This document shows, one piece after another, positions 38,368-63,385 of a stretch of 64,000 nt of DNA (position 1 is the first letter of the stretch; the number at the start of each line of letters is the position of its first letter). The notes below the pieces were generated by a model, which had not been told where the DNA came from, did no database searches, and was given only the letters and a program-made list of their open reading frames with translations. The position numbers and the translations under genes were made by a program. Location: assembly GCA_937949615.1 (NCBI GenBank), contig CALEDQ010000004.1, positions 326,326 through 390,325 of the forward strand. The letters are read 5' to 3'. This DNA is from an uncultured bacterium (GTDB taxonomy: Bacteria; Muiribacteriota; Ozemobacteria; Ozemobacterales; Ozemobacteraceae).

Positions 38368-38382
38368 AGGGAGACGCCACAT

Positions 38383-43624: not shown

Positions 43625-43664
43625 GTTATGCTTCCAAAGCGCAGTAATAACAGGTTTTTTCCGG

Positions 43665-43749: not shown

Positions 43750-43777
43750 TAATATTTTGATGTTGTCGTCATAACAT

Positions 43778-45975: not shown

Positions 45976-47530
45976 GGCCTTTCAGATTTTTGCGAATTTC
46001 GGCTTCGAGCTTTGCAGACTCTGAGAACTGGGTGTTCAGTTCGGTGACGAGGCGGGTCATCTTTTCTTCGAAGGGTTCGTCGTCGGCTTCGACTTCTTCG
46101 GCACCGACGTAGCGGCCCGGTGTCAGCACGTAGCCATGACCGGCTATTTCGTCTGTTTTGGACGACTTGCAGAATCCGGCGATGTCTTCATATTTGCTGG
46201 CAGCTTTTTCGCCTCTCCAGGCCTGGTAGGTCAATACGATTTTCTTAATATCTTCGTCGGTAAGTTCGCGATGAACGCGGTCGACCAGCATACCCATCTT
46301 GCGGGCATCGATAAACAGAGTTTCACGATTTCTGCTGCGATAATGGCCGTTATTTTTATTTTTTGTCAAAAACCACAGACATACCGGAATCTGCGTGCTG
46401 TAAAACAGCTGGCCGGGTAACGCTACCATGCAGTCGACGAGATCTGCTTCGACAATAGCTTTCCTGATATCGCCTTCGCCAGACTGATTCGATGACATGC
46501 TGCCATTAGCCAGAACGAAGCCTGCCATTCCATCAGGAGCCAGGTGATGAATAAAATGCTGCACCCAGGCATAGTTGGCGTTGCCTTTCGGCGGTGTGCC
46601 ATATTTCCAGCGCACATCGTCATCGACGCGGTGCCAGTCTGAATCATTGAAAGGCGGATTTGCCAGCACGAACTGCGCCTTGAGATCTTTATGCAGATCG
46701 CGCCTGAAAGTATCGGCGTGTTCCGGGCCAAAATCGGCTTCGATACCACGAATTGCCAGGTTCATGATCGCCAGGCGCCGGGTGGTAGCGTTGCTTTCCT
46801 GACCGTAGATGCTGATATCGCCAATGCGACCACCGTGTTCGACGACGAACTTTTCCGACTGCACAAACATGCCGCCTGAACCACAGCAGGGGTCATATAC
46901 GCGGCCCTTGTAAGGCCCGAGCATTTCTACGAGCAGCCTGACAATACATGACGGGGTATAGAACTGGCCGCCGTTCTTGCCTTCGGCACTGGCAAACTGG
47001 GTAATAAAATATTCATATACGCGCCCGAGCACGTCTTTTGCACGATTCGCAGCATCACCGAGGCCGATAGTGCCAATAAGATCGATCAGCTCGCCGAGCC
47101 GGTGTTTGTCGAGGGCAGGACGGGCATAATCTTTTGGCAGCACGCCTTTCAATCTCGGGTTGTCACGCTCGATGGCTACCATGGCATCATCGACAGTTTT
47201 TCCGATTGTTGGCTGTTTGGCGTTGGCCTGCAGGTGTGACCAGCGGGCTTCTTTCGGCACCCAGAAAACATTTTCGGCGCGATATTCGTCGGCATCTTCC
47301 GGATCGGCACCAGCATAATCGCCTTCGCCGGCAAGCAGCTTCGCGCGCATTTCCTCGAATGAGTCTGAGATATACTTCAAAAATATCAGACCGAGCACGA
47401 CGTGCTTGTATTCAGCCGCATCCATGTTGTTGCGCAGTTTGTCTGCAGCCAGCCAGAGCTTGGCCTCAAAACCGATATTTGCCGTAGATTCCCCGTTTGC
47501 TGCTTTTGCCTGTTTTTTTGCCATGACCAT
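45959..47530 (-). CDS. hsdM: Type I RM DNA methyltransferase subunit (HsdM, N6-adenine)
   Basis: FYTP motif. [11 protein letters not shown] is an AdoMet-binding motif. LANPPFN is the catalytic NPPF motif. Confidence 0.9.
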
Positions 47531-47761
47531 TCCTGTTCTGTGAGCACGAAGACACCCTCAGCATGGCATCTCCCGTGCCAACCCCGTGTACGATTTTTTA
47601 TATCTGCATTGTACCAGCACATATTCAAGGCTGCAAGTTTTGTTTCCCCGGACCCAGCGTTGAATCTGCGGCATATATCTTTCGTGGCCTTTGTTCGCCG
47701 TGCTTTGTTCTGGTATTATATAATTCACAGACCGAATATTCAGAGAGACTGAACTGCAGCA

Positions 47762-48175
47762 ATGAAGCTTATAAACATTGAAAAAGACAACTGGTATGGC
47801 TGGCAGATGTTGCCAGGTTATACCGGTGAACATTGCATTCCGTATTTTTCACCCATATTCGTTACAGATTTTAAAGCCCACAAAAGCGGGAAAGGGCTTT
47901 TCAGGATTGAATTTTTAAACGCGACTTACGAAGAAGGCGTAAGCGATTTCTCTGTAGAAATGAGAGTGCTGAAGCGGGCAAAAGATTATCTGGTAGGTGA
48001 AATCGTTGAAGATCATGGCGTCAGTTCTGCCAGATGCGCCATCATCAGTAGCATCGAAGCCGAATGGTTGCGACGATTCTGCCCGGAACTGGTCACCCGA
48101 CACCCGCAGCTGACCAACTCAGATCTGGATTCAGAAAAACTCGCTCAGTATCTGAACGAAGCCCTCGTGCCGTAA
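47762..48175 (+). CDS. Hypothetical protein (island cargo)
   Basis: 137-aa ORF followed by a terminator. No motif. Confidence 0.4.
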   Translation: MKLINIEKDNWYGWQMLPGYTGEHCIPYFSPIFVTDFKAHKSGKGLFRIEFLNATYEEGVSDFSVEMRVLKRAKDYLVGEIVEDHGVSSARCAIISSIEAEWLRRFCPELVTRHPQLTNSDLDSEKLAQYLNEALVP

Positions 48176-48192
48176 TTTATAATAAAAAAATA

Positions 48193-48222
48193 ACGGGCCA
48201 GATAAGGCCCGCTGTTTTTGCA
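48193..48222 (+). terminator. Rho-independent terminator
   Basis: CGGGCC-agataa-GGCCCG followed by CTGTTTTT. Confidence 0.7.
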
Positions 48223-48303
48223 ATTCTGATGCCTGAAGAATACCCAACTAAACATTGGTATGATTTCTTATGGTTTCCTCTTTTCGTGTGTCGTCAAGCA
48301 ATG

Positions 48304-48549
48304 TTATTTTTTTAGGTTGGCGATCGCTGACAACATGCCAGCAAGCGTTAGGCCTCCAAGGATCATTATGCCTTTTCCATCCCCGCCATCACCAACTTGT
48401 ACAGAGTAATTTCCATTATTATCAGAGCTGCTGTAAATTGGCCGATTGTCTGAGGTAAACCCCTCAAAATTCTGTGCAAAAACCTGACCGGAAAAGAAAC
48501 AAAGGAACACTAAGCAGATAAACACAGAAAGAAAAGACTTGTTATTCAT
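48304..48549 (-). CDS. Small secreted or membrane-anchored protein
   Basis: Signal peptide MNNKSFLSVFICLVFLCFFSGQVFA. Hydrophobic C-terminus. Confidence 0.4.
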   Translation of the reverse strand: MNNKSFLSVFICLVFLCFFSGQVFAQNFEGFTSDNRPIYSSSDNNGNYSVQVGDGGDGKGIMILGGLTLAGMLSAIANLKK

Positions 48550-48908
48550 ATATCCTCCCCCGTCGTCTTTTGACTCGCATCAGCAAACTAGCAAGCTATA
48601 TGCCAACTAAAAAACTTCACTGATTATAAAAGGAAATGCAATCAAAATCAGTTCTTAAAGGGAAGGATTCTCTAGTTTCGCGTTAGAAATATTTTGCGGG
48701 CTAGGAAAATTTCCGCACCCATGAGGTGCAGTTACCACATCCGAATAAAAATTACAGTCCGCATAATCATCTATGATGGAGCGGGGGATTGAATTGTCAG
48801 ACGAATAATTTGTATGTAATGCCGCGTCGTTTCAATCAATTTTTCACCTCTCTTTGTAACATCACTAAAAAAGCGGGTCTGCACGGACCCGCCGAGCTTC
48901 GGCGTCAG

Positions 48909-49763
48909 TTATTCTTCAACAACTGAAGCCTTTTCGCGCTGATACTGTTCGCAGAATGGCGCGGCAGGGCAGTAGTTTTCGCAACGTATGCTTTTGCCTG
49001 GGCGGAAGACAAGGTGGTGCTTGTCACCGGCGGCTTTGCATGCTGCCTCTGCTTCGGTTTCGTCTTCGAACAGTTTAACTGCAGTCTTGCGGCCTTCTTT
49101 CATGAGGGCGAAGACATTGGCAGTCTGCCAGCGTTCTTCTGCTGAGCATTCGGGTAATTTATCCCGGGCTGCCTGGTGGAGGCGGATGCGTTCGTCGATA
49201 TACTCTTCGCATTTTTCCTCGCTCCAAAGCGGGATTTCGATAGTTACCACGGGCTGAGTCGGGTAGTCTGTGCTGCGCTGAGCCTGGCTTTTACTCCAGT
49301 CGCGCAGTATCACAACGATCTGCAGTTGGTTGACGGCATAACCGTTTTCTCTGAGCAGTGTTGCCAGAATATTCATCTGGGCAATCCACTCTGAGCGTGA
49401 GCCATTCTTAACGGAATAGCACGATGTGACTTTGTAGTCTGTGAGAACGCCGGAAACAGGGTCGAACCTGTCGAACTGGCCGGAGATATTCCAGCCCTGG
49501 CGTTCTATTGTGAGCCGGGTTTCTGTGTCTGCAACGTGTTCTGCACGTTCGAGCACGGCATGGATGGCTTGTCCCCAAAGGCACCACCACATGTCAGCGG
49601 CCTCTAATTCAAGGTCTTTGAAGTGTTGACGTTCAAGTGCAATTTTGCGTGGCGGGCTGATAAGCCTGGTTACGCTGATGTCGCATGGGCCGGAAGTATA
49701 GGGATCATTTCTGATCGCGTTGACGATAGATTCCGGAAGATTGAACTTGTTGGTGATCTGCAT
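48909..49763 (-). CDS. PD-(D/E)XK nuclease-family protein with a Cas4-like four-cysteine cluster (phage recombination exonuclease-like)
   Basis: FDRFD...LTDYK is a (D/E)xK core. Cys residues at GPCD and CENYCPAAPFC (C-x3-C-x5-C). Adjacent to the ERF gene. Confidence 0.55.
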   Translation of the reverse strand: MQITNKFNLPESIVNAIRNDPYTSGPCDISVTRLISPPRKIALERQHFKDLELEAADMWWCLWGQAIHAVLERAEHVADTETRLTIERQGWNISGQFDRFDPVSGVLTDYKVTSCYSVKNGSRSEWIAQMNILATLLRENGYAVNQLQIVVILRDWSKSQAQRSTDYPTQPVVTIEIPLWSEEKCEEYIDERIRLHQAARDKLPECSAEERWQTANVFALMKEGRKTAVKLFEDETEAEAACKAAGDKHHLVFRPGKSIRCENYCPAAPFCEQYQREKASVVEE

Positions 49764-49764
49764 A

Positions 49765-50517
49765 TTATGCGGCCTCCTTGAGTTCGAGTTCTTTGCTGAA
49801 AGCGTTGATGACGGTATCGAGATCTGAGTCTTTGATCTCTGCGGATTCTTTGATGGGCCGGTCGAGGCCGATAAGATTACCGATGACAGCTTTCATGTCA
49901 TCAGGTGTCTGACCGAGTTTGGCAGAGAGATTGAACAGGAGTCTGATCTTCTGCACTCTCTTCTGAGCTTGTTCACCCTTGTTATCGGGTTTCTGAGGGG
50001 CCTTTTCTGCTTTGTCAGCTGATTCCGATTTCGGGGTGCTGCTGACGCGGGTTTTCTTGTGTTCGTCAAGATTGGTTACCTGCGAGGGTTTTGCAGGTTT
50101 CTGGGTATTTTCTTTTACCTGGTTCTTGGGCATTGCTGCCTCTGCGTCATCGTCTTCGTCGGAGACAACGCCAACCAGACTGGCGAGGGAATAGCGTCTG
50201 GCATAGGTAATGGCGCTACCAATAGCCTGAGGGCTGTCTTTTATGATGTTCATAGACAGCTGATCACTGATGAATTCGCCTGATGCGTGAACGAGCATGG
50301 TGGTCACTATCACGCGGTCTTCGATTACTGAAGTTCCCTGAATTACGGCGATCTGATTCTGGGAAAGAGCGGTGCGGCACGCTTCCATGATACTGGCAAG
50401 TGTGGCATATTTGCTTCTGAAGTGCGGGTTCTGGGCGTCGAATGACGCGGGTTTCATTTCTCCCTGGGCTTTAGCAAGGGCTTCTGAAAGTTTTCCGATT
50501 GTTTCACTTCGTTCCAT
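49765..50517 (-). CDS. ERF-family single-strand annealing protein (phage recombinase)
   Basis: NPHFRSKYATLASIMEA...AITYARRYSLASLVGV resembles the Erf superfamily. SD GGAGG before ATG (MERSE). An alternative upstream ATG extends the ORF to 50589. Confidence 0.6.
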   Translation of the reverse strand: MERSETIGKLSEALAKAQGEMKPASFDAQNPHFRSKYATLASIMEACRTALSQNQIAVIQGTSVIEDRVIVTTMLVHASGEFISDQLSMNIIKDSPQAIGSAITYARRYSLASLVGVVSDEDDDAEAAMPKNQVKENTQKPAKPSQVTNLDEHKKTRVSSTPKSESADKAEKAPQKPDNKGEQAQKRVQKIRLLFNLSAKLGQTPDDMKAVIGNLIGLDRPIKESAEIKDSDLDTVINAFSKELELKEAA

Positions 50518-50585
50518 ATTATTTTCCTCCTGAAAGTAAGAAGGGGAGCAGCTTTTGATGGCCACTCCCCGGGTTACGGTAAGTT

Positions 50586-51606
50586 TCATGCAGCATGAGC
50601 GATATATTCCGCTGCTGCGTCTTCGAGCTGTTTACGGTCTTCTGGTATGAGACCGAGCTGTTCGTGTGTTTCAAAATCTGTAATTGCCTGGGCAACGCCG
50701 AACATGGTGTCATGCGGTTCCTTGTTGTAGGCGAGCATGAAAGGCTCTACAAGTTTGGCAGGCATGTGAGCCCGCTTAATAATTGCTTCGATGGCAAGCT
50801 GGGGATTGGCGATACGCTTTTCCTGCGACTGCCTGAGGTTGTTCACTGCAATGCTGAGCCTTTCGGGCACATGCTGCAGGACATGGGAAATCTGATTCCA
50901 GAGATCTGCTTCTGGGCGGCCACTATGGCGACGTCTGAGAAGAGTAGCGCCTGCAATCGGCGCTGTTAGCCCGTTTGAACAAATCAGCCTTGCAAGACAA
51001 AGGCTAATACTGAGGCTGGCATAACCAACCCCTGAGTTCTGAATGAAAATACCACCCCAGATAGTGCCAACGGCAGAGCTGCCGTGGTTATCGATGGGGT
51101 CGCCGATCCTGATTGAGTAGGATACGGTTTTGTCGGTGAAGTTTGCTCTGATCACTGGGATCTGAGATTCGCTCTGTTGAAGCGAATGAAGTATCAGGCT
51201 GCTGAGCATAGCGTCTGATACCGGACTGTAGGTAGGGCTGACGAATGCTTTGAGGGTTCCGTCAGCATTGGCTTGTGTAAGGTCGGTCAGTCTGAGTTTG
51301 ATCTGACCGGTGGCGCGGCTGAAGCGCCTGTTAAGTTCGTATGCTTTTTCGTCATTGCTGGCATTTTCGAACCAGCGGTCGAAGCGGCAGCCGAGAAGAT
51401 TTGCTATCTGTCTGCGGCTCCAGGGGGTGAGGGCGTAGTTGCCTTCACTGGGAACAACGATGTTGAGATCGTCGTTCATTTTAAGATCTGAGAGATTCGT
51501 GATTATATCGGGTATGTCGTGTGATTCCACGGTGCCGATATGGTCTGCAAGGGTCTGCAGGGTCATAGGTCTGTTGTCTTTCAATGTGTTGAAAGTGAGT
51601 AACATA
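50586..51606 (-). CDS. Hypothetical phage/island protein (~340 aa; an upstream in-frame extension to 51761 is possible)
   Basis: SD AAGGAGA before ATG (MLLTF). Stop overlaps the ERF region. No confident family assignment; possibly DUF932-like. Confidence 0.4.
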
Positions 51607-51834
51607 AGAATATTCTCCTTGGAAATGGTTAAATAGCGCCATCTGGCGCAGTTGTGATTGGGTAGGCGTAAAAATGCCTGGGTGACGCGATATTTGCGTC
51701 TGGTAATTGGCACAGATCTGTGCCGGGAGTCACTGAACAGCCAGTGGCGAGCTTTTCGCACGTGCGCGAATTTTTACAGCTAAATTTTCTGCTGTGAGAA
51801 ATTGTTCAATAGATCCATTTTCTGCTGAGTTTCA

Positions 51835-51957
51835 GTCTTCTGAGCGCGGTTCTGAGCTTGTCGGGACTTTCTCTTCACGTTTTTTGAGCCTGTCTACGGT
51901 TTCTACGAGCGTGGTCGCAATTGTGATGATATCTTTGAGCGTCTGAATCATGGTCAT
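51835..51957 (-). CDS. Small ORF (40 aa) with a strong RBS
   Basis: GGAGAAAAAGG upstream of ATG. MTMIQTLKDIITIATTLVETVDRLKK...; not in the ORF track because it is under 60 aa. Confidence 0.3.
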
Positions 51958-52178
51958 AAGCCTTTTTCTCCTTTGAAAAATAGGATTTAAAGCGAGGTCA
52001 TCGCTTCTACAGGGCTTATAACGCGAAATAATTATTTTTTTTACGACTCAAAACCTTTTCCAGAGAAGAGCTTCTCAAAAAATATTTTGAAATTTCACAG
52101 GAAAATCCTTGACTAATCGGCTTTGCATTCCTATAGATTCGATAACAATTTTTTAAAATCTTTATCAGGAGCCAGTTT

Positions 52179-52664
52179 ATGAGTAAAAATTTAACAAAAT
52201 CTGAACGCAAGACCCTTGTCGAGCTGAGTTTCATAATGCGATACGAGCAACTTCCGCCTTTCAACGATGGTTTCGTGACAGCAAAATCCAATGGATCAGG
52301 AAAAAAGCGGCTTAGACGGATTCAGGCGAACCTTCAGGCCAACTTTAACGGAGGTGTGTCGGATATATGCAAAATTGCCGCCATTTCCCTCGCTGCCGGC
52401 GTTCATTTTACACAGATAGGGAAGAAGTTCGCAGGCTCAAAGACTATCCGAACCACCCTCGAAGCCAAAGGATGCGATGACAGCTTTATCAGAAAGGTTC
52501 TGGCTCTCGCAGAGAAATTCCCAAAGCTTGTTCTTGTTTCGTGCTGGCCCAGCTCAGAGTTGATGGACGATTGCCTCTTTGACCTGTGGCTGCCTGGTTG
52601 GCGCGAGTGTGAGACCAAACCAGGGGAAATCAAAACTGCAGCCAGCGCCATGGCAAGAGCGTGA
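52179..52664 (+). CDS. Hypothetical protein (last gene of the island)
   Basis: 161-aa ORF preceded by a TTGACT-17-TATAGA promoter-like element at 52110-52138. Confidence 0.4.
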   Translation: MSKNLTKSERKTLVELSFIMRYEQLPPFNDGFVTAKSNGSGKKRLRRIQANLQANFNGGVSDICKIAAISLAAGVHFTQIGKKFAGSKTIRTTLEAKGCDDSFIRKVLALAEKFPKLVLVSCWPSSELMDDCLFDLWLPGWRECETKPGEIKTAASAMARA

Positions 52665-52869
52665 ATTCAGTGATATAAATTATAAATACCGTTGTGAGCC
52701 GGTAAAGAAACAGAAGTGCTTCAATATGTGATAAGATTATTTTTGATATGATTTTATGAAATCAAGAATTTAAGCTTGGCCAGCCACACAGGTGGTAATG
52801 ATTGGTGGTAATATTTTTTTATAATTTTTAACACCAGCACCCAGAAAGCAAAACAAGCCAAACTTTGAC

Positions 52870-52889
52870 TCCCTGCACCCCAGCCGCAA
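52870..52889. repeat. attR: second copy of the 20-bp tRNA-Gln 3'-end repeat
   Basis: TCCCTGCACCCCAGCCGCAA is identical to 34843-34862. Confidence 0.85.
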
Positions 52890-53208: not shown

Positions 53209-54252
53209 TCATTCTTTGTCCTCGTCGCTTTTGTCTTCCTGCAGAAGCTTTTTTATGTGGCGGTCAAAGTCTGATTCAAACAGGCGATCCTGAACGATGC
53301 GGTATTTTTCAAATTCACTTTCGGCATGATCTTTTGCTATTTTTGCCGTAACTTTGCCGGGGTTCTGCAGAATTTCACGATCATCGAATTCGAGAAACAT
53401 ATCGAGTCGCTTTGCCCAGTCTTCCATGGTCATGGGTATTTTGCGACGGGCCCGTTCTTCAGCCAGATCGAGATAGGCGTTCACTATACGGCCCAGCGAT
53501 TCAAGCTCTTCTTTACTGAGATAGTTTTTGGCAACCACCACATCGGTTTTTACGATTTTGCCATCGGGGGCTTTTTCCCAGGAGGTCAAGCCCATTTTGG
53601 GCTTCTTGCTGTCAGCGCGTTCCATGATCAGTTCTGCGGCCGTATGACCATGAATGGCGAAATGCAGCTTGTTCTGAACTTTGGCAAAAAACTCTCTGGT
53701 TGTTGGTGCATCGCGGTTATAGTCGACGCTGGTGGAGTAAATATCAGTGATTTTCTGATAAAACCGGCGTTCGCTGAGCCTGATTTCCCTGATTTCTTCG
53801 AGCAAGTGTTCAAAGTAATCTTCGCCAAGAAAAGCGCCGTTTTCCATGCGCTTTTTATCGATCACATAGCCCTTTATTGAAAATTGCCTGAGAACATTGG
53901 TAGCCCATTGTCTGAACTGGATAGCACGTTCGGAATTAACACGAAAACCGATGGCAATGATGGCATCGAGATTGTAGTGATCGATTTTGCGGGAAACCTT
54001 TCTATTGCCTTCCTGTTGAACTATTAGGAAATTCCTAATAGTTGCTTCCCGGCTTATTTCGCCGCTTTCAAAGAGTTTCGTCATGTGTTCATTGATTGTT
54101 GGTATGGTAACTGCGAACAACTCGGCTATCAGTCGCTGAGTCAACCAGACGGTTTCACCTTCCACCCGAACTTCAATACTATTTTCACCGGCCTGGCCGG
54201 TAAATATCAGAAACTCGGCAGTGCTGTTACGAATCTGCAGTTGTTTTTTCAT
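53209..54252 (-). CDS. RhuM-family (virulence protein RhuM / DinD-like) protein
   Basis: IRNFLIVQQEGNRKVSRKIDHYNLDAIIAIGFRVNSERAIQFRQWATNVLRQF is a conserved RhuM core. Confidence 0.7.
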   Translation of the reverse strand: MKKQLQIRNSTAEFLIFTGQAGENSIEVRVEGETVWLTQRLIAELFAVTIPTINEHMTKLFESGEISREATIRNFLIVQQEGNRKVSRKIDHYNLDAIIAIGFRVNSERAIQFRQWATNVLRQFSIKGYVIDKKRMENGAFLGEDYFEHLLEEIREIRLSERRFYQKITDIYSTSVDYNRDAPTTREFFAKVQNKLHFAIHGHTAAELIMERADSKKPKMGLTSWEKAPDGKIVKTDVVVAKNYLSKEELESLGRIVNAYLDLAEERARRKIPMTMEDWAKRLDMFLEFDDREILQNPGKVTAKIAKDHAESEFEKYRIVQDRLFESDFDRHIKKLLQEDKSDEDKE

Positions 54253-54680
54253 CTTAAAGTTCCCCTGAAAATGCCAGGTGCAGCAGCGTTTTTTTTCAAC
54301 CCATCAAGCGCGACGAGCTTTTTCTGGCATTTTTTGGGAAACACCGCATACGCTTTCTGCTCAATTCCGTGTGGGCTGAGCTTCCCTGCACGGCATCTGT
54401 TCGGGATAATTTAACCACGATTGAGCCAGCTGTGCAAGAACCTTGTCTGCAAAGTCGGGTAAATCAGTTCTTCGATTTTCAGACTCAGAAACCTTCTCGC
54501 ATGTTTATACCTGCGTGAACGAAGTAATGCAATTTCTCAAAAAGAATCAGGCTGTTTCACCACGGCAATACCTTTTGCCTACAGCTATGACAAGCTGTGA
54601 AATTTACTGTGACATTACTGTGACAGCTACTATGACAAAATTCTGCAATTAATTGAGCTGGTTTTAAGACATTTAACCAC

Positions 54681-54741
54681 AAAGTTTGCGACATATTCGC
54701 AACATGTTTGCGCCAAACTATCCGGGAATGCCATGCAAATG
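54681..54741. repeat. Direct repeat copy B (with an internal 20-bp duplication)
   Basis: See copy A at 53107-53156. Confidence 0.6.
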
Positions 54742-54809
54742 TCTCACTGGTGGCGAGACTATTTTGTTACAGGCGCAGGTGTCGCTAAATTGTCATAAAG
54801 TAAAATAAG

Positions 54810-54855
54810 TTTTTCGTTATGTTACTTTCGGGGCGAAAAGTAACATAACGAAAAA
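54810..54855. promoter_or_regulatory. Perfect 19-bp inverted repeat TTTTTCGTTATGTTACTTT-(8)-AAAGTAACATAACGAAAAA upstream of hsdM-2
   Basis: Arms are exact reverse complements, flanked by T- and A-runs. Could act as a bidirectional terminator or an operator. Confidence 0.65.
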
Positions 54856-54952
54856 GTCACTCCAGGGCGCAATTTTGGATAAAATTGCTGACAAGGGCGC
54901 GGGCAGAGAGTAATATGGTGGCACGACACCATAAAAATTGCAGAGGTAGCCA

Positions 54953-56410
54953 ATGCTGACCGGGGAAATACGCAACAAAGTCGATGCACTGTGGACCGCA
55001 TTCTGGACCGGCGGCATCGCCAATCCGCTGACCGTTATCGAACAGATTTCATACCTGCTGTTCATCAAGCGTCTCGATGATATTCACACGCTGAAAGAAC
55101 TGCAGGCCAACCGAACCGGCAAGCCGGTCAAAGACCCGATATTCAACGATAAACAACAGCATCTGCGCTGGTCGAAGTTCAAGCACCTTGAACCGGGCGA
55201 AATGCTCGGGCTATTTCAGACAGAAGTTTTTCCGTTCATCAAGAACATGGCGAGCGCCTCTGACACCACATTTGCCAGAGCCATGGCCGATGCCACCTTT
55301 ATTATACCGAAAGCCAGTCTGCTGGCACAGGCGGTCGAACTCATCGAGGATATTCCGATGAAAGACCGTGATACCAAGGGCGATGTTTACGAATACATGC
55401 TCAGCAAGCTTTCTACTGCCGGCCAGAACGGCCAGTTCAGAACGCCGCGCCACATCATCAAAATGATGGTCGAGCTGATGCAGCCGAAAATCAAAGATTT
55501 CATCTGTGACCCGGCCTGCGGCACCGCCGGCTTTCTGGTTGCGGCGGGTGAATACATCAGAACCCACCACGAAATCGACTATCACGCGGCCGAAAACCGC
55601 GAGCATGTGAACGGCCGCCTGTTCAACGGTTTCGACTTCGACACGACCATGCTGCGCATCGGCAGTATGAACATGATGATGCATGGCGTCGAGAACCCGC
55701 ATATCATGTATAAAGACTCGCTGGCAGACAGCAACAAAGAGTCTGAGCAATACACCCTGATTCTTGCCAATCCGCCGTTCAAGGGCAGTCTCGCCGAAAA
55801 CGAAGTTTCGAAGAAGCTGCTCGAAACCGTAAAAACCAAGAAAACCGAGCTGCTGTTTCTGGCCCTGATGCTGCGCCTGCTGAAGGCCGGCGGCCGCTGT
55901 GCCGTCATCGTTCCTGACGGGGTGCTTTTCGGCTCATCAAAAGCCCATCTCGACATTCGGAAAGAGATCATCGACAATCATCGCCTTGAAGCGGTCATTT
56001 CGCTGCCTGCCGGGGTTTTCAAGCCTTACGCCGGCGTCAGTACCGGCATCATGGTTTTCACCAAAACCGGCACCGGTGGCACTGACAATGTCTGGTTCTA
56101 CGACATGCAGACCGATGGTTTCAGTCTTGACGACAAGCGCACCGAGATTGCCGACAACGATATTCCGGATGTTATCAGGCGCTGGCATAATCTCGCGGCC
56201 GAAAACAGCCGCAAGCGCACCGACAAATCTTTCCTGGTGCCCGTCGATGACATCAGAAAAGAAAAATACGACCTGTCGATCAACCGCTACAAACAGATCG
56301 TCTACGACGAAGTCAAGTATGACAAGCCCAAAGAAATCCTGGCCGAAATCATGCAGATCGAAAAAGAAATCCAAAAAGGCCTCGAAGAACTCGACGGTAT
56401 GCTGGGATGA
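54953..56410 (+). CDS. hsdM: Type I RM DNA methyltransferase subunit (HsdM), second system
   Basis: HsdM_N-like N-terminus. QFRTPRHI. DPACGTAGFL. ILANPPFKG is the NPPF catalytic motif. Confidence 0.9.
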   Translation: MLTGEIRNKVDALWTAFWTGGIANPLTVIEQISYLLFIKRLDDIHTLKELQANRTGKPVKDPIFNDKQQHLRWSKFKHLEPGEMLGLFQTEVFPFIKNMASASDTTFARAMADATFIIPKASLLAQAVELIEDIPMKDRDTKGDVYEYMLSKLSTAGQNGQFRTPRHIIKMMVELMQPKIKDFICDPACGTAGFLVAAGEYIRTHHEIDYHAAENREHVNGRLFNGFDFDTTMLRIGSMNMMMHGVENPHIMYKDSLADSNKESEQYTLILANPPFKGSLAENEVSKKLLETVKTKKTELLFLALMLRLLKAGGRCAVIVPDGVLFGSSKAHLDIRKEIIDNHRLEAVISLPAGVFKPYAGVSTGIMVFTKTGTGGTDNVWFYDMQTDGFSLDDKRTEIADNDIPDVIRRWHNLAAENSRKRTDKSFLVPVDDIRKEKYDLSINRYKQIVYDEVKYDKPKEILAEIMQIEKEIQKGLEELDGMLG

Positions 56411-57174
56411 AGCTAATTTACATCGATGAATCAGGGGACACAGGTTTTAATCTGAATGACCAGCAACAGCCTATATTTGTTTTAACAGCCTTAGTAATAC
56501 CAGATTTAATGTGGCCACATCTTGAAAGCGAATACAGGTATGCAATCAATGAATTTTTTCCTGATGGAATACCGGAAGATTTTGAGCTTCATGTTACAGA
56601 CATGAAGGCTAGAAAAAACCATTATAAAAATTTCGACAAAGAACTTGGTGCAAAGTTTAGAGACAGAGTCCTTGAATTTATTTCCGGGCTGGGAGTAAAG
56701 ATTTTTTACCGAAGAATAATAAAAAAACAGTTTCAAAAGTTTTGCGAAAAGCGTTTCGGTATTGTTAGGCTGAGCCCATATCTCATGGCGCTTTCGATGC
56801 TTTGGTTTGAAATTAACAAATATCTTAACGCCCAAGAAGATTTTGGTATGCTGATCTTTGATGACAACAAACATTATTTATCAGACGTAGAAAAAGCCAT
56901 TCGGTCTCTTCGACTTGATCTTAGATTCATGCTGTCGAACAATAAGCTTATTGAAAAAGGCTTCTTTGTTGATTCAAAAAAAAGCATTCCAATTCAATTA
57001 ACAGACCTGCTTGCTTACTATATCAGAAAATATGAGGAACATAAGTTTGGGAAAACAGTAAGCAAAACTGACCAAGACTGCTTTTCTGCGCTAGAAGGAA
57101 TTGCACAGATGGGAACAAAAGTACCAGCCGAATTTAATGAGTTGTTAAAATGGGCAGAAGAAAATTGGAGATAA
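56407..57174 (+). CDS. DUF3800 family protein inserted between hsdM and hsdS
   Basis: N-terminal LIYIDESGDTGF is the signature DUF3800 start. Start overlaps the hsdM stop (ATGA). Confidence 0.7.
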   Translation: MKLIYIDESGDTGFNLNDQQQPIFVLTALVIPDLMWPHLESEYRYAINEFFPDGIPEDFELHVTDMKARKNHYKNFDKELGAKFRDRVLEFISGLGVKIFYRRIIKKQFQKFCEKRFGIVRLSPYLMALSMLWFEINKYLNAQEDFGMLIFDDNKHYLSDVEKAIRSLRLDLRFMLSNNKLIEKGFFVDSKKSIPIQLTDLLAYYIRKYEEHKFGKTVSKTDQDCFSALEGIAQMGTKVPAEFNELLKWAEENWR

Positions 57175-57289
57175 AAAAGCGGCCGCCTCTTTCGATGGAA
57201 CCGTCAATTGACGATTCACTGGCAGTCGCTGTTCAGAATATACGCAATGCGTGTAAATTTGTCAACAAGTATGAAAGGAAGGGCTGCGT

Positions 57290-58465
57290 ATGAGTTGGCC
57301 TGTAAAGCCATTAGGGCAAATTTGCGGAATAGTAGCAGGCCAGTCGCCGCCATCAGAAACTTACAACAAAAATCGGGATGGCATGCCTTTTTTTCAGGGA
57401 AAAGCAGATTTTGGAGAACTATTTCCAACCGTCAGAACATGGTGCTCAAAGCCAAACAAAGTAGCCGAACCGAATGACATTCTGATCTCAGTGAGAGCAC
57501 CAGTAGGAGCAACGAATATCTGTAATGTTACTGCCTGTATTGGTCGCGGTTTGGCTGCCATAAAACCTTCAGAAAAAGTTGTCCAGAAGTATTTACTGTA
57601 TTACTTTCGTTATTTTGAGCCTATTTTATCAGCATCAGGGAACGGTGCAATTTTTTCAGCAATAACAATGTCTGATTTAAAGGAAGTCCAAATCCCACTG
57701 CCGCCACTGGAAGTGCAGAAAAAGATTGCGGCGGTGCTGGAGAAGGCCGATGAGTTGCGACTCAAGCGTGAAGAACAGATAAAGCGCCTCGACGACCTGC
57801 TGCAGGCAACCTTCCTCGACATGTTCGGCGACCCCGTCACCAACCCGAAGGGCTGGCCCGTGAAAAAACTTCAGGATTTATTAAAGGATAAAAAAGACCT
57901 TGTGGACGGCCCATTTGGCTCTTCTGTAAATACCCAAACAGACTATATTGAAAATGGTGAGATACCAGTTATCAGAACAAAAAATGTTGGACTTCTTTGT
58001 TTTAAGCCAGAAGACCTGAAATTCATGACTCGCGAAAAGTATGAAACGGTCAAGAGAAGCCAAGTTCTACCGGGCGATATAGTTCTTACAAAAGTTGGGA
58101 CAATTGGTAACTTATGTCTATTTCCATCTGTTTTTGAAGAAGCAGTGTTGTCAACAACAGGTAGTTGTAGGATCAGGCCCAACAAAGATGCGTTGGAACC
58201 GCTCTTTTTGCTTCATTATCTATACCATTATCGCCCCAGAATGTTGGAAATTGCTTCAACAGCTGTTCAAGCCTTTCTAAATATGAATCATATTAAAAAC
58301 TTTGATATCTTTATTCCGCCCGCTGATAGGCAGAAAAGGTTTGGCGAAGTTTGCAATAGTATTACGTTAAAAGCCAGTAAGTTGGAAAACGGGAGTTCTA
58401 GGATTTCTAGTCTCTTCAACTCCCTCATGCAGCGGGCGTTCAAGGGGGAGCTGGAACTGAGATAA
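57290..58465 (+). CDS. hsdS: Type I RM specificity subunit (HsdS), second system
   Basis: Two TRDs with conserved spacer and coiled coil (LPPLEVQKKIAAVLEKADELRLKRE; LMQRAFKGELEL). Confidence 0.85.
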   Translation: MSWPVKPLGQICGIVAGQSPPSETYNKNRDGMPFFQGKADFGELFPTVRTWCSKPNKVAEPNDILISVRAPVGATNICNVTACIGRGLAAIKPSEKVVQKYLLYYFRYFEPILSASGNGAIFSAITMSDLKEVQIPLPPLEVQKKIAAVLEKADELRLKREEQIKRLDDLLQATFLDMFGDPVTNPKGWPVKKLQDLLKDKKDLVDGPFGSSVNTQTDYIENGEIPVIRTKNVGLLCFKPEDLKFMTREKYETVKRSQVLPGDIVLTKVGTIGNLCLFPSVFEEAVLSTTGSCRIRPNKDALEPLFLLHYLYHYRPRMLEIASTAVQAFLNMNHIKNFDIFIPPADRQKRFGEVCNSITLKASKLENGSSRISSLFNSLMQRAFKGELELR

Positions 58466-58530
58466 CTGGCGGGGCGAAATAGGTGTTGATAAAATGTTGT
58501 AAACAGATAGAATAAAGCATTGAGAGCAGC

Positions 58531-61500
58531 GTGATGAACAACGATAATACACAGAGCGATAAACAGCAGAATCAGAGACAGAGTAACTTCAGTTTTATCG
58601 ATAATAAACTGAAGCAGATCAGAGAGTTTGCGCAGAAAGCCGAACTGCGCGGCCGGCTCGATGCCAGGTATGCGTGCTTTCAGGCCAGGCTGACGGCAGA
58701 AACTGCTCTTAAATGGATTTTCAAAGCTGATCCCGAGCTGTCTCTGCCGTATAACACAATGCTCAGCAATCTGATCAATGATGCGGGTTTCCAGAAGATT
58801 GCCCCGATTCAGGCCAAACGCAGTCTCACCATCATTCAGAAATACGGCAACCTGGCCGCGCACAGCGAACATGCAATAATGGCCCAGGATGCCGTTCTGG
58901 TCATTAAGCAGCTGCACAGCTTTCTATTCTGGCTGCACCGCACCTATTTCGATGTGAACCTGCAGTCAGACTTCGACGAAAAACTCATTCCCGATGCCGG
59001 TGATATTGCCAAAACCAGCAGAAACAAGATTCTTGAGCTCGAACAAAAACACGAAGACGAAGAGAAAAAGCTCAAAGAAGCCCTTGAGGCAGAAAAAGCA
59101 GATAAAGAAGCCTATAAGGCAAAGCTGGCAACCCAGGAAGCAGAAATTGCGCAGCTGAAAGCTCAGATCGCAGCCAAAAAGGCTGAAGCAGAGGCTGTTC
59201 CTGATACACATGATTACTCTGAAGCCGAAACCAGAAAACTGCTTATCGATGTATTGCTGAAGGAAGCAGGCTGGCATAAGGGCTCCCCCGGCCTGAAAGA
59301 AGAATACGAACTCGATGGCGTAGACCGCAACAAGAATTACACCGGCACCGGTTTTGCCGACTACGTTCTCTTCGACGACAACGGCCTGCCGCTCGCGGTC
59401 ATCGAAGCCAAGAAAACCACCAAAGATGCGAAGATCGGCAAATACCAGGCACTCGATTACGCCAACGCCCTCGAAAAGAAGTTCAAGCAGCGCCCGGTCA
59501 TCTTTTATACCAACGGTTACGAAATCTACATCTGGGACGACCACTTCTACCCCGAACGCAAGATTCAGGGCTTCTACAAAAAAGACGAGCTGCAGCTTGC
59601 CATCGAACGCAGAAAAACACGAAAGTCGATTCTCAACCCGGCTATCAACCGCAAAACGGTCGAACGCCCATATCAGCATCTCGCCATTCGGGCAGTTTCC
59701 GAACATTTTGAGACGGGCAATCAAAGAAGAGCCCTGCTGGTTATGGCTACCGGCTCAGGCAAAACCAGACTTACCATCGCTCTGGTCGAAGTGCTGCAGA
59801 AAGCCAACTGGGCCAAGCGCGTGCTGTTCCTCTGCGACCGTGATTCGCTGGTTAAGCAGGCAAAAGGCGCGTTCACGAAGTTCTTGCCGAACTGCCCGGC
59901 GGCTGATTTGAGAGATGCGAAGTCTGACAATCTTTCCAGGGTCTGCCTGTCAACCTATCACACGATGATGAACCTGATCGATGAGTTCAAAGACGGTGAG
60001 AGACTGTTTTCGCCAGGCCATTTCGATCTGCTGGTCATCGACGAGGCTCACCGCAGCATCTATCAGAAGTTCGGAGCGATCTTCGATTACTTTGATTCGT
60101 TCCTGGTCGGCCTGACCGCGACGCCCAGAGATGAAGTCGACAAGAACACCTACCAGATGTTCAACCTGACCAAAGAAGCCGGCCCGGTGTTCGGCTATGA
60201 CCTCGGCGAAGCCATAGATCAGGGCTACCTGCTGAATTATTACAAGGCGGCAGTGTCGACGAAACTCAGCCGCGAAGGCCTTACCTACTCGAAACTCAGC
60301 GACGAAGACAAAGAAGAATACGACCGGCACTTTATCGACGAAGTCACCGGCGAAAGGCCCGAAAAAGTCGGTAAAGAGGCGATCAACAAATGGCTGTTCA
60401 ATATTCCGACCGTCGACAGCTTTTTAAAAGATCTCATGGAAAAGGGCATCAAAATCGCAGGCGGCGACCGGCTTGGCAAAACCATCATTTTCGCGCGTAA
60501 CAGCGACCATGCAAAGTTTATAGTCGAAAGATTCGACGCCAATTATCCGCAATATAAAGGGCATTTCTGCGCTCAGATCGATTACACGCTTGGCAAAGAC
60601 GCCGAAGGCATGATCGACAATTTCAAGAAAGCCGACGGCATGCCACAGATAGCGGTTTCGGTAGACATGCTCGATACCGGAATCGATGTTCCTGAGGTTG
60701 TTAATCTCGTGTTTGCCAAACCCGTTTATTCGAAGGTGAAGTTCTGGCAGATGATCGGCCGCGGCACGAGAAAATGCGAGAATCTGTTCGGCCCCGGTGA
60801 TGACAAGAAGTGCTTCTACGTCTTCGATTACTGCGAAAATTTCGAATTCTTCGAGACCAACCCCGATGGCGTTGAGAGTAACGCGGTGATACCGTTGAGC
60901 CAGCGGATCTTCAGAAATCGTCTGCTACTGGCCGACCTGCTGCAGGATGACAGCAGCGAAGATTCGGTGGCAATCAGAAAAGAGTTTCTGGATAACCTGC
61001 ATGAATATGTGTCGGGCATGTGCGATGCGAACTTTCTGGTGCGGCCGCATCTGCAAAGCGTCACGAAGCTGAAAAACCGGGAAACCTGGGAAAAGCTCGA
61101 TTCTGAGCTGAAGGCGGCGGTGGCGAAAACTATCTCAGGCTTACCCAGCCAGCTGGAACAGGATGATGAATATGCCAAACGATGGGATCATCTGCTGCTG
61201 AAAACAGAGCTGGCGCTGCTTGAGAAGTCTGGCGAATACGTTTCCCTGATGAAGAAGATCAGAAAGATTGCCGACAAGCTCGAAGACAAGACGACGATAC
61301 CAGACGTCAAAAAACAGCTGGAATTCATTCAGGCGATCAAGACCGATGAATTCTGGGAAGGCATGAACCTTAAAGCTCTCGAAGAGATCAGAAAGCGTCT
61401 CAGACTGCTGATCAAATACATCGATCCGGGCGAGAAGCAGATCGTTTATTCGAACTTCAGCGACACCCTGACTGCGCCTGCAGTATTCGAGCCAGGCACC

Positions 61501-62031
61501 GAGGCATTCAAGAACGACGAACTGGCAGCCTACCGACAGAAAATGAACGCTGTAATCGATCAAAACCTCGATAAAGAGGTGATCTGGAAGGTCAGATGTA
61601 ATCGACCTCTGACTGCTGCCGACCTGAAACAGCTCGAAAAAATTCTCGAACTCAGCACATCAGAAGACAAAGAGTTGTTCAGGGAAGCTTATCAGAGCGG
61701 TTTCCGGGCAAAGACCGGCACAGACAACTCCAGTCTTGAGCTGCTGATCAGGTCTATCGTCGGCCTGGATCGAAAAGCGGTCGAAAAAGAATTTGCGGAT
61801 TTTATCGAGAAATCGAACCTTACCTCATTACAACTGGCCTTTGTGAGCAAGATCATCGACTACTTCGCCGAAGACGGCTTTGTCAGGGATGACATTCTCT
61901 ATGAACCGCCATTCAGCGACATGTATCACGACGGCCCCGAGGGCCTGTTCGGCGACCGCGTCGAAACCCTCTTCGCCCGTATCCAGCGATTAAACGGCCT
62001 GAAATCTGCCGACCGCCCGGCAAAGAATTGA
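58531..62031 (+). CDS. hsdR: Type I restriction enzyme R subunit (HsdR) with an N-terminal DUF4145-like extension
   Basis: Nuclease core GFADYVLFDDNGLPLAVIEAKK. Helicase motifs MATGSGKT and DEAHRS. An extra ~230-aa N-terminal domain plus a coiled coil. Confidence 0.9.
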   Translation: MMNNDNTQSDKQQNQRQSNFSFIDNKLKQIREFAQKAELRGRLDARYACFQARLTAETALKWIFKADPELSLPYNTMLSNLINDAGFQKIAPIQAKRSLTIIQKYGNLAAHSEHAIMAQDAVLVIKQLHSFLFWLHRTYFDVNLQSDFDEKLIPDAGDIAKTSRNKILELEQKHEDEEKKLKEALEAEKADKEAYKAKLATQEAEIAQLKAQIAAKKAEAEAVPDTHDYSEAETRKLLIDVLLKEAGWHKGSPGLKEEYELDGVDRNKNYTGTGFADYVLFDDNGLPLAVIEAKKTTKDAKIGKYQALDYANALEKKFKQRPVIFYTNGYEIYIWDDHFYPERKIQGFYKKDELQLAIERRKTRKSILNPAINRKTVERPYQHLAIRAVSEHFETGNQRRALLVMATGSGKTRLTIALVEVLQKANWAKRVLFLCDRDSLVKQAKGAFTKFLPNCPAADLRDAKSDNLSRVCLSTYHTMMNLIDEFKDGERLFSPGHFDLLVIDEAHRSIYQKFGAIFDYFDSFLVGLTATPRDEVDKNTYQMFNLTKEAGPVFGYDLGEAIDQGYLLNYYKAAVSTKLSREGLTYSKLSDEDKEEYDRHFIDEVTGERPEKVGKEAINKWLFNIPTVDSFLKDLMEKGIKIAGGDRLGKTIIFARNSDHAKFIVERFDANYPQYKGHFCAQIDYTLGKDAEGMIDNFKKADGMPQIAVSVDMLDTGIDVPEVVNLVFAKPVYSKVKFWQMIGRGTRKCENLFGPGDDKKCFYVFDYCENFEFFETNPDGVESNAVIPLSQRIFRNRLLLADLLQDDSSEDSVAIRKEFLDNLHEYVSGMCDANFLVRPHLQSVTKLKNRETWEKLDSELKAAVAKTISGLPSQLEQDDEYAKRWDHLLLKTELALLEKSGEYVSLMKKIRKIADKLEDKTTIPDVKKQLEFIQAIKTDEFWEGMNLKALEEIRKRLRLLIKYIDPGEKQIVYSNFSDTLTAPAVFEPGTEAFKNDELAAYRQKMNAVIDQNLDKEVIWKVRCNRPLTAADLKQLEKILELSTSEDKELFREAYQSGFRAKTGTDNSSLELLIRSIVGLDRKAVEKEFADFIEKSNLTSLQLAFVSKIIDYFAEDGFVRDDILYEPPFSDMYHDGPEGLFGDRVETLFARIQRLNGLKSADRPAKN

Positions 62032-62068
62032 AAAAAGTGGAAATTTTGTGAAAAAGAGGATAAAGTTG

Positions 62069-62084
62069 ACTTAACTTTAAAGTT
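62069..62084. promoter_or_regulatory. 16-bp perfect palindrome TTAACTTTAAAGTTAA overlapping the higB ribosome-binding region (putative TA operator)
   Basis: Read directly from the sequence, 5 nt before the higB ATG. Confidence 0.5.
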
Positions 62085-62088
62085 AATT

Positions 62089-62511
62089 ATGCTTTTATTA
62101 GATCTTCTTACTGACGATGAATATATATGGAAGTTTTATGTATTGGCCAGATCTGAGGAAGATTGCGAATTACACGACTTCCTGAATTCATTGTCTGTAA
62201 AAGATAAGGAGGCCTGGAGCGGTTTGCTGGCAATTATGGAAACAATGGCGGCAGCACCTGAAGGGCCGAGGCTGATGGATTCACTGTCTCACGAAATGGG
62301 AAGCGCAAAATATAAAATTTACAGATTTGAAAAAGGCAGATTAAGAATCGCCTGGTTTTACGGAGAAGGTAATAAAGTCGTCATCTGTTCGCACGGGTAC
62401 TACAAAAAATCTCAAAAGACTCCGGAAAAAGAAATAAAAAAGGCAGAAAAGAATGTTGAGGCCTACCTCAGAGCGGTAGAAGGAAAAGGTGAAAGAAATG
62501 GGAAAAATTGA
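62089..62511 (+). CDS. higB: HigB/RelE-superfamily toxin (Gp49-like)
   Basis: KIYRFEKGRLRIAWFY...VICSHGYYKKSQKTPEKEIKKAEK is a Gp49/HigB pattern. Overlaps the downstream antitoxin gene. Confidence 0.7.
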   Translation: MLLLDLLTDDEYIWKFYVLARSEEDCELHDFLNSLSVKDKEAWSGLLAIMETMAAAPEGPRLMDSLSHEMGSAKYKIYRFEKGRLRIAWFYGEGNKVVICSHGYYKKSQKTPEKEIKKAEKNVEAYLRAVEGKGERNGKN

Positions 62512-62920
62512 CTTCAGAAAGCTCATAAATGAAGCAAAAGAAAGCGAAGCATACCTGGTGGAAAAGGCTTCCATGTCTTTTCTGGTTAAGGTCTGGAAGC
62601 TGATGCGGGAAAAAGAAATAACCCAGAAACAGCTTGCAGAAAGAGCCGGCCTGAAGGAGTCGTATATCTCGCGAATCTTTTCAAGAAAAGGCAATCTTAC
62701 TCTTGCAACCATGGTTAAACTGGCAAAATGCCTCAGTGCTGATATCGAGGTTGGGGTTGAAGCCACAAAAACAGCCTCGAAAAAGCTCGATTATATTTTT
62801 GAAAAACAAGCTCCCACATCTGAAGAAAAAGTAATTTATACAAACATTCACCACCTCAATACCAGTCACTGGAAAACCAGCGAGGATGAAGGCTATGAAA
62901 GAATCAGTCCTGCAGCTTAG
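62489..62920 (+). CDS. higA: HTH-XRE antitoxin (HigA-like) with a ~50-aa C-terminal extension (putative chaperone-addiction region)
   Basis: LMREKEITQKQLAERAGLKESYISRIF is an XRE-family HTH. A C-terminal tail lies beyond the HTH. Overlaps both neighbouring genes. Confidence 0.7.
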   Translation: MKEMGKIDFRKLINEAKESEAYLVEKASMSFLVKVWKLMREKEITQKQLAERAGLKESYISRIFSRKGNLTLATMVKLAKCLSADIEVGVEATKTASKKLDYIFEKQAPTSEEKVIYTNIHHLNTSHWKTSEDEGYERISPAA

Positions 62921-63326
62921 AGACTACTTTATAACTAAAACATCTGTTGAACTGAACCAGGAATTCAGACTTGATGAACCATCAAGTCTGAATGTTGGGG
63001 ACTTAAGCCTGGAGATCAGCTCAAATACTCTTGCTCACCCCGACACCAGAGAAGAAATTTTCAAAGTTGAACTGAGAGTCGCAGTAAAAAGCGAAAATCT
63101 TAAAAAATGCAATATCCCCTATTGTTTCGATATTTCCTCAGTAGGAATTTTCGTGCTTGGGGAAAGCTGCCAGGAAAATAGAGAAAAAGTCGCGGTAATA
63201 AATGGCGCGTCAATACTGTTTTCATCTGTAAGAGATTATCTCGCCGGAATTACCGGGCAAGGCCCTTTTCGGCGAATAGTTCTGCCAACAGTTGATCTGA
63301 GAAGCCTGGAAAAGAACGAAAAATGA
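62886..63326 (+). CDS. SecB-like chaperone (third component of the toxin-antitoxin-chaperone module)
   Basis: Collinear with E. coli SecB: EIFKVELRVAVKSE...CFDISSVGIFVLGE...ILFSSVRDYLAGITGQGPFRRIVLPTVDL. Confidence 0.65.
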   Translation: MKAMKESVLQLRDYFITKTSVELNQEFRLDEPSSLNVGDLSLEISSNTLAHPDTREEIFKVELRVAVKSENLKKCNIPYCFDISSVGIFVLGESCQENREKVAVINGASILFSSVRDYLAGITGQGPFRRIVLPTVDLRSLEKNEK

Positions 63327-63385
63327 ATCCAGGATCGAATTTTTTCAAACCTGGATTCTTCAACAACCCGGGGCTTATTGCCGAA

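Follow-up and report, generated by a model that had tools for sequence, protein, structure and literature searches.

A probable toxin–antitoxin–chaperone operon of the HigBA class beside a type I restriction–modification system in an uncultured bacterium

Introduction

Does a compact three-gene locus in the genome of an uncultured bacterium encode a three-part toxin–antitoxin–chaperone (TAC) system, or an ordinary toxin–antitoxin pair that happens to be followed by a SecB-like gene? The question is raised by positions 62051–63358 of a 64,000-nucleotide (nt) stretch of DNA (GTDB family Ozemobacteraceae; NCBI GenBank assembly GCA_937949615.1, contig CALEDQ010000004.1, forward-strand positions 326,326 to 390,325), the whole of which is referred to here as the window. 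A first-pass annotation, made from the letters alone, had likened the locus to the Mycobacterium tuberculosis (Mtb) system Rv1955–57, with a HigB-like toxin, a HigA-like antitoxin carrying a C-terminal extension, and a SecB-like chaperone.

The analysis described here identifies the locus as a probable tripartite type II TAC operon of the HigBA class, in which a Gp49-family toxin is paired with a helix–turn–helix (HTH) antitoxin, and the Rv1955–57-like reading is supported at every point open to sequence analysis. TACs with this architecture have already been taken apart in genetic, structural and anti-phage studies (PMC5105189; PMC6377645; PMC9098466; bioRxiv 10.1101/2024.02.24.581848), and the module is a further, divergent member of an already well characterised class that includes Gp49–HTH–SecB systems.

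Gene layout

The module consists of three overlapping open reading frames (ORFs) on the + strand (Table 1), in the order toxin, antitoxin, SecB-like gene that the first-pass annotation had given; all three are present, and the order is kept in relatives. For the toxin, the ATG at 62089 is the sole in-frame start; the first 12 residues are conserved in homologs, and codon 6, at which Leu codons replace one another synonymously, speaks for this start as well. The starts of the other two genes were chosen by comparison with homologous loci (loci outside the window carry L numbers below). The antitoxin frame offers starts at 62489 (143 amino acids, aa) and 62498, of which the latter, an ATG with AAGGTGA 5 nt 5' of it, is the likely one; the likely chaperone start is the ATG at 62895, with GAGGA 8 nt 5' of it. 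The resulting overlaps, 14 nt between toxin and antitoxin and 26 nt between antitoxin and chaperone, are found again in the gene calls of L006/L007 and L010.

Table 1. Positions of the genes and sequence elements of the module within the window.
Feature	Position	Strand	Remarks
Toxin	62089..62511	+	140 aa; Gp49/HigB-type, RelE superfamily; PF05973
Antitoxin	62498..62920	+	140 aa; N-terminal helix and XRE-type HTH (residues ~20–85, 62555–62752)
Antitoxin C-terminal tail	62753..62917	+	Residues 86–140; candidate chaperone-addiction segment ending Ala-Ala
SecB-like chaperone	62895..63326	+	143 aa; alternative ATG at 62886 gives 146 aa
Conserved regulatory block AAAAGAGGATAAAGTTGACTTAACTTTAAAGTTAATTATG	62051..62091	+	39/41 columns identical in four loci
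Perfect 16-bp palindrome TTAACTTTAAAGTTAA	62071..62086		From inverted-repeat listing; operator role putative
Perfect 14+3+14 hairpin in chaperone gene	62963..62993	+	RNA minimum free energy -23.5 kcal/mol
Inverted repeat at chaperone stop	63325..63358		15-nt arms, 87% complementary

The SecB-like chaperone

The third protein, called SecB-like in the first-pass annotation, is given the SecB fold by Pfam, by profile search and by structure comparison. Pfam SecB (PF02556) matches it with 39.3 bits against a cut-off of 26, and a profile built from 77 homologs matches Haemophilus influenzae and Escherichia coli SecB over the full length (E 5.6e-9 to 1.5e-8), while a single-sequence phmmer search of the PDB found no SecB. 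Its AlphaFold (AF2) model, with a predicted local distance difference test (pLDDT) score of 91.8, comprises four strands and a long helix; in a Foldseek comparison of this model with the PDB, the top 17 matches are all SecB or Mtb Rv1957 (5mtw), with E ~1e-5, probability 1.00 and template-modelling (TM) scores of 0.48–0.65, and the next match is two orders of magnitude weaker. The SecB fold, on which the first-pass annotation had made its reading depend, was thus recovered by structure and profile searches alike.

Within this fold the protein falls below the cut-offs of the NCBIfam export-SecB equivalogs (26.9 bits against 102.8 for TIGR00809, and 39.8 against 143 for NF004392), which fits a dedicated chaperone of the SecB-TA type. 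Among the PADLOC defence models it matches PD-T4-9_C best (E 3.8e-9, full length), a model that stands for the CmdTAC chaperone. In a weak alignment with 5mtw (E 0.16), a conserved GPF-R-R-I-V-LPT segment lies opposite Mtb A153–L157, a stretch that contacts residue Y114 of the Mtb chaperone-addiction segment (PMC6377645); the correspondence between the two segments is tentative.

The toxin

The HigB-like identity proposed for the toxin is upheld by Pfam Gp49 (PF05973), which matches it well above the cut-off (38.4 bits against 23.9; profile positions 2–89 of 90); PHROG 2523 matches it too (E 5.4e-10). M. tuberculosis HigB-TAC is a member of this Gp49-like group as well. The closest solved toxin is Streptococcus pneumoniae HigB (PDB 6af3), which the toxin family profile matches over residues 9–122 with E 3e-6. 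In this alignment Y104, K106, Q109 and K110 (Y104-x-K106-x-x-Q109-K110) fall on pneumococcal F90, K92, Q95 and K96, and the spacing of the motif equals that of F93/K95/Q98/K99 in Mtb HigB-TAC, itself described as Gp49-like, in which the substitutions K95A and K99A abolish toxicity (PMC9098466). Throughout the family alignment, which takes in two-component relatives at 30–36% identity, K106, Q109 and K110 do not vary. The N-terminal half of the 6af3 alignment is unreliable, and the upstream catalytic Arg/Lys could not be placed in it. By homology with characterised TACs, the toxin is predicted to be a ribosome-dependent mRNA endonuclease.

The antitoxin and its C-terminal tail

The antitoxin belongs to the XRE/HTH_3 family (Pfam HTH_3, 42.2 bits against a cut-off of 23) and falls short of the HigA equivalog (NCBIfam TIGR02607, 22.3 bits against 47.7), so that of the term HigA-like used in the first-pass annotation the family assignment stands and the narrower one does not; judged by these profiles, the protein is HigA-like only in the broad sense of an XRE/HTH_3 antitoxin paired with a Gp49 toxin. 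The folds and sequences closest to its HTH are those of restriction–modification (R-M) controller proteins and HipB.

The extra C-terminal tail noted earlier was also found, as a run of ~55 residues beyond the HTH where S. pneumoniae HigA (97 aa) has ~11. In the AlphaFold model, 10-residue blocks over residues 21–80 have a mean pLDDT of 84–93, whereas residues 90–140 lie below 50 save for two isolated residues, a prediction of disorder. The tail contains five aromatic residues (3 Tyr, 1 Phe, 1 Trp) and 3 His, and it conserves V(I/V)(Y/F)TNIHH(L/V), an invariant Trp127, ER/GI and a terminal (A/T)A, with Tyr/Phe114 kept in most homologs; it evolves faster than the HTH, its nonsynonymous divergence (dN) being 0.25–0.68 against 0.09–0.28. 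Published chaperone-addiction (ChAD) segments are C-terminal, unstructured, variable in length and sequence, and recognised via aromatics (PMC5105189; PMC6377645; bioRxiv 10.1101/2024.02.24.581848), and their last residues can be a degron of the ClpX type, namely VA in Mtb HigA1 and AA in CmdA (bioRxiv 10.1101/2024.02.24.581848). On account of its position, predicted disorder and composition, the tail of the window antitoxin is a candidate ChAD.

Relatives, conservation and decay

The family is rare. A word-indexed search returned only seven chaperone, eight toxin and eight antitoxin clusters, and an exhaustive search of representatives returned one chaperone cluster above 50% identity, the next relative standing at 36%. 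Of 5.8 billion proteins, the SecB-TA clade accounts for only about eight clusters at 90% identity, and its next relatives are no more than 36% identical. A genome scan and a metagenome scan for the family each yielded one further locus.

The Gp49–HTH–SecB trio recurs in the same order in L001, L003, L005, L006, L007 and L010, and every relative with enough flanking DNA shows this gene order, in six unrelated contexts in all: downstream of hsdR (the window and L012–L017, from the same species), divergent from hsdM–hsdS (L001), next to a TGT-like gene (L005), with SLFN_AlbA_2 and Fic-like genes as neighbours (L006), in divergent orientation to an HsdM_N fragment (L007, L008), and next to Fic-like and AbiEii genes (L009). 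Between loci synonymous divergence (dS) is saturated, dN amounts to 0.14–0.22 for the toxin, the most conserved of the genes, and 0.17–0.38 for the chaperone, and each of the three genes has a dN/dS far below 1. By these measures, purifying selection acts on the trio, which is kept together as one unit. Within the window species, the antitoxin is identical in 21 contigs.

Decayed copies complement this picture. In L011:1137–1437 (metagenome-assembled genome binchicken_co117_419), one deletion took the equivalent of window positions 62064–63163, and with it toxin, antitoxin and two thirds of the chaperone. What is left there is the 3' end of hsdR, a piece of the control block and the final 53 chaperone codons; this related genome also lacks the whole second type I R-M system. 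In L018:1–860, L020 and L021 short tandem REP-like (repetitive extragenic palindrome) repeats (tggattcccgctttcgcgggaatgac) stand in place of the toxin, the antitoxin is cut to 90 aa without the tail, and the chaperone consists of its C-terminal 94 aa, the first ~65 residues being gone. Loss of the antitoxin tail and the chaperone N-terminus together with the toxin would be expected if both matter only beside a live toxin.

The window copy has a few minor peculiarities of its own, namely a tail-less chaperone, a perfect intragenic hairpin, and an invariant control block without a Shine–Dalgarno sequence. Its chaperone ends in ...LEKNEK (63309–63326), without the Lys-rich C-terminal tail of 14–20 residues present in all diverged homologs (compared: L001, L005, L006 and L009); since these homologs and the chaperone remnant of the related genome (L011:1279–1500, ...EKNEKTEPATPVKPSKKRK) keep it, the basic tail was lost recently in the window lineage. 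The hairpin, with perfect 14-nt arms and a 3-nt loop in codons 23–33 of the chaperone gene, is absent from L001, L005 and L006 and hence lineage-specific; the window has only five distinct perfect hairpins, this one included, whose arms reach 12 nt or more. At the end of the gene, the inverted repeat over the stop codon is followed by a T-rich run on the - strand only, and is probably the terminator of a convergent 340-aa gene (no Pfam match), possibly common to both genes.

Two further loci with SecB-like genes were observed in passing. Another module of three overlapping genes, L022:2015–3432, has as its last product the next-closest SecB-like protein (P0008, 36% identity). The module's other two products (182 aa and 156 aa) match no Pfam family, and its neighbours are a PIF1 helicase and a MuF/ART-PolyVal gene; this module may be a TAC with an undescribed toxin–antitoxin pair. 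In L024 (Candidatus Thiodictyon syntrophicum plasmid pTs485, NZ_CP020372.1 464291–465768), the genes immediately upstream of DISARM drmA are those of an MqsA-type antitoxin and of a protein annotated 'protein-export chaperone SecB'; going by its gene content, this locus is an MqsRA-class TAC in a defence island, with its chaperone under a generic export-SecB name.

The control region upstream of the toxin

The most conserved stretch of the entire module is the 41-nt block that runs from 62051 into the toxin ATG; the window, L001, L005 and L006 agree in 39 of its 41 columns. Upstream of it the four loci are unrelated, and in the coding DNA only ~50% of columns are identical, with dS saturated. 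The block contains the palindrome TTAACTTTAAAGTTAA, which stops 2 nt before the toxin ATG and is unchanged in the four diverged loci. A third half-site, AAGTTGA at 62063–62069, makes three AAGTTRA/TTAACTT half-sites within 62063–62086, and an extended imperfect palindrome spans 62062–62095. Perfect 8+8 palindromes number 3 in the window against 1.0 ± 0.9 in shuffles, so that the presence of one is by itself not beyond chance, and it is through its conservation that this palindrome is significant. The first-pass annotation had described a 16-bp palindrome over the promoter and ribosome-binding site; it does occupy the position of a ribosome-binding site, but no Shine–Dalgarno motif is found there.

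The block, with its conserved palindromic half-sites, is probably the promoter core together with the antitoxin operator; HigA-type antitoxins autoregulate via promoter palindromes (PMC11980606). An RNA element in its place was rejected for lack of any Rfam match and for a fold no better than shuffles (z = -1.36), and a DNA operator/promoter is preferred. As to the promoter itself, a sigma-70-like TTGACT-N16-TATGCT would place the transcription start inside the toxin ORF and was rejected because the first codons are coding, as the synonymous Leu changes indicate, and no other in-frame start exists. Two candidates are left, TGGAAA (62038)-17-TAAAGT (62061) and the TAAAGT at 62078, which would give a leaderless start. 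A two-codon mini-ORF (TTG ACT TAA) behind AGAGGA was likewise discarded, L005 having TTA instead of TTG. A toxin gene without a Shine–Dalgarno sequence, followed by two genes that both have one, would favour an excess of antitoxin.

Genomic neighbourhood

Upstream of the module, at a distance of 57 nt, lies hsdR, which belongs to a type I R-M operon (hsdM, DUF3800, hsdS, hsdR). The settings of the module are rich in defence genes, with type I R-M and RhuM/PDC-S05 in the window and HsdM/S, SLFN_AlbA_2, Fic-like and AbiEii genes in relatives. Another protein encoded in the window, GldG, falls into one 90%-identity cluster with proteins that bear the names Candidatus Rifleibacterium or Ozemobacteraceae, an indirect pointer to a Rifleibacterium-like host.

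Directly to the left of the module, 53209–62031 forms a second defence block composed of a RhuM-family gene (PADLOC PDC-S05, E 2e-158) and this R-M operon, in which the DUF3800 gene (56407–57174) is inserted between hsdM and hsdS. Farther left, 34786–52889 is an integrative element at a tRNA-Gln gene, with the TAC module outside it, to its right. The element is flanked by a 20-nt direct repeat, TCCCTGCACCCCAGCCGCAA, at 34843–34862 (the 3' end of the tRNA) and 52870–52889, and encodes a tyrosine integrase (34989–36314), a D5-type primase–helicase (38383–40335), ERF and DUF932 proteins, as well as a complete type I R-M system on the - strand, from hsdR (40466–43624) through a DUF4357 gene and hsdS to hsdM, ending at 47530.

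Alternative explanations

The TAC reading has to be weighed against others, one of them an ordinary two-component HigBA pair whose antitoxin is independent of the chaperone, the SecB-like gene being a general export chaperone or an unrelated passenger. SecB-family membership alone cannot separate export SecB from SecB-TA; two of the three acidic positions that E. coli SecB uses for SecA binding are kept in the chaperone (E19 and D79 in the profile alignment), and PGAP labels such genes 'protein-export chaperone SecB'. This explanation is highly improbable: the SecB-like gene shares 26 nt with the antitoxin gene, and in every relative it comes after the Gp49–HTH pair, although the flanks are unrelated. 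The protein, moreover, stays far under the export-SecB cut-offs, its homologs have a basic and not an acidic C-terminal tail, its best match in the defence library is the CmdTAC model, and antitoxin tail and chaperone decay together after toxin loss. A domesticated or inactive module, with a toxin that has lost the ability to cleave mRNA (as with M. tuberculosis HigB2/HigB3) and an HTH protein acting mainly as a transcription regulator, is also very unlikely. Some Gp49-like HigB paralogs are non-toxic (PMC9098466), the window chaperone has lost its C-terminal tail, and other genomes hold decayed copies of the module; yet the three ORFs are intact, the antitoxin is unchanged throughout the contigs of the species, the toxin has the lowest divergence of the three genes, and its invariant K106, Q109 and K110 occupy positions essential in Mtb HigB-TAC.

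The HTH protein could further be taken for the controller (C) protein of the adjacent type I R-M system. The solved sequences and folds closest to it are C.Esp1396I, C.BclI and C.AhdI, the module follows hsdR at a distance of 57 nt, and PADLOC 'Control_protein' models match it with E 5.8e-7. This likeness is generic to the XRE fold, however, HipB antitoxins scoring about equally, and PADLOC PDC-M64C scores better (E 1.1e-10). C proteins are ~80 aa long, precede type II R genes and have no 55-residue tail, whereas the protein in question has 140 aa and its gene lies downstream of hsdR; the gene also sits between Gp49 and SecB genes in loci without R-M genes (L005, L006, L009). The C-protein reading was rejected on genomic context, and its residual probability is negligible.

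Several observations nonetheless weigh against a TAC of the proposed kind. There is no Shine–Dalgarno sequence 5' of the toxin, and its promoter has candidate positions only. The antitoxin tail shares no sequence similarity with known ChADs, a lack of likeness that is to be expected because published ChADs vary in both length and sequence. The missing Lys-rich tail could alter the activity of the window chaperone, and a scan of viral contigs found no copy of the family.

Comparison with characterised systems

With the M. tuberculosis TAC (Rv1955 HigB1/Rv1956 HigA1/Rv1957 SecB-TA) the window module shares the gene order, a Gp49-like toxin whose C-terminal helix is long and which carries the F/Y-x-K-x-x-Q-K motif, an HTH antitoxin whose disordered extension ends in a small aliphatic dipeptide (VA in Mtb, AA here), and a chaperone of the SecB fold. 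The differences are considerable: chaperone identity is only 14–18%, the antitoxin tail measures ~55 residues against 46 and has no sequence similarity, the window chaperone lacks the long N-terminal helix and the beta3–beta4 insertion (143 aa against the 184-residue chain of 5mtw), and the module here belongs to an uncultured Rifleibacterium-like host and lies next to a type I R-M system. The TAC of Geobacter lovleyi (Glov_3492–3490; PMC5105189) is likewise of the HigBA class, and its ChAD starts at antitoxin residue 86, as does the tail in the window, but is 30 residues long; its termini as deduced from published primers (PMC5105189), a toxin start of MFIKSLIP and an antitoxin end of VYRHAQG, differ from those of the window family.

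By its description, the anti-phage HigBAC of E. coli NT1F31 (bioRxiv 10.1101/2024.02.24.581848) also combines a HigB-type toxin, an HTH antitoxin and the SecB-like HigC in a defence locus, with an aromatic-patterned ChAD in the antitoxin and a chaperone proposed as phage sensor. That ChAD, however, is 96 residues long and has four spaced aromatic motifs, as against ~55 residues for the window tail, and HigBAC is prophage-borne, whereas no relatives of the window family were found on viral contigs. CmdTAC/PD-T4-9 of E. coli (PMC11618068; PMC9519451) resembles the module in its chaperone, the best PADLOC match, and in the Ala-Ala ClpX degron at the end of CmdA, but its toxin is an mRNA ADP-ribosyltransferase instead of an RNase of the RelE fold, and the antitoxins of the two are not related. 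S. pneumoniae HigBA (PDB 6af3) provides the closest solved toxin and an antitoxin that aligns over the HTH, yet is a two-component system with no chaperone, its 97-aa antitoxin lacking a C-terminal extension.

Proposed mechanism

The steps of a mechanism can be inferred by homology with characterised TACs. The toxin, as a ribosome-dependent mRNA endonuclease, would halt translation unless bound by the antitoxin dimer, whose HTH would at the same time bind the conserved palindromic operator 2 nt upstream of the toxin start and repress the operon. The disordered, aromatic-containing tail would leave the antitoxin prone to aggregation and degradation, its terminal Ala-Ala resembling a ClpX degron, and the antitoxin would work only while the SecB-like tetramer holds this tail. 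Titration of the chaperone by a phage structural protein or by unfolded-protein stress would then free the toxin and stop growth; titration by a phage structural protein has been shown for E. coli HigC (bioRxiv 10.1101/2024.02.24.581848). Because it adjoins a type I R-M system among defence genes, the module would most likely act as an abortive-infection or addiction element of the defence island.

A more specific proposal, which we regard as unlikely but worth stating, is that the small TAC clade is a dedicated partner of type I R-M systems, its SecB-like phage-protein sensor triggering abortive infection if restriction fails, and that the window lineage has been re-tuned by loss of the Lys-rich tail, by the new hairpin, and by toxin translation without a Shine–Dalgarno sequence or leader from the constrained 41-nt region. 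R-M genes adjoin the module in three of the six independent contexts.

Significance

The current understanding of TAC systems is unchanged by this locus, and its value lies mainly in annotation, where such chaperones carry generic 'SecB' names or none, and in the cataloguing of defence islands. The putative operator/promoter block of 41 invariant nt presents a target for binding studies. The natural variants of the clade, which range from intact copies through a tail-less chaperone and a toxin-less copy without the antitoxin tail to deletion of the whole module, could help to map the parts of the antitoxin tail and of the chaperone that are needed. With this module, a rare and divergent SecB-TA clade is defined, and the HigBA-type TAC architecture now extends to an uncultured candidate phylum, the Rifleibacteriota.

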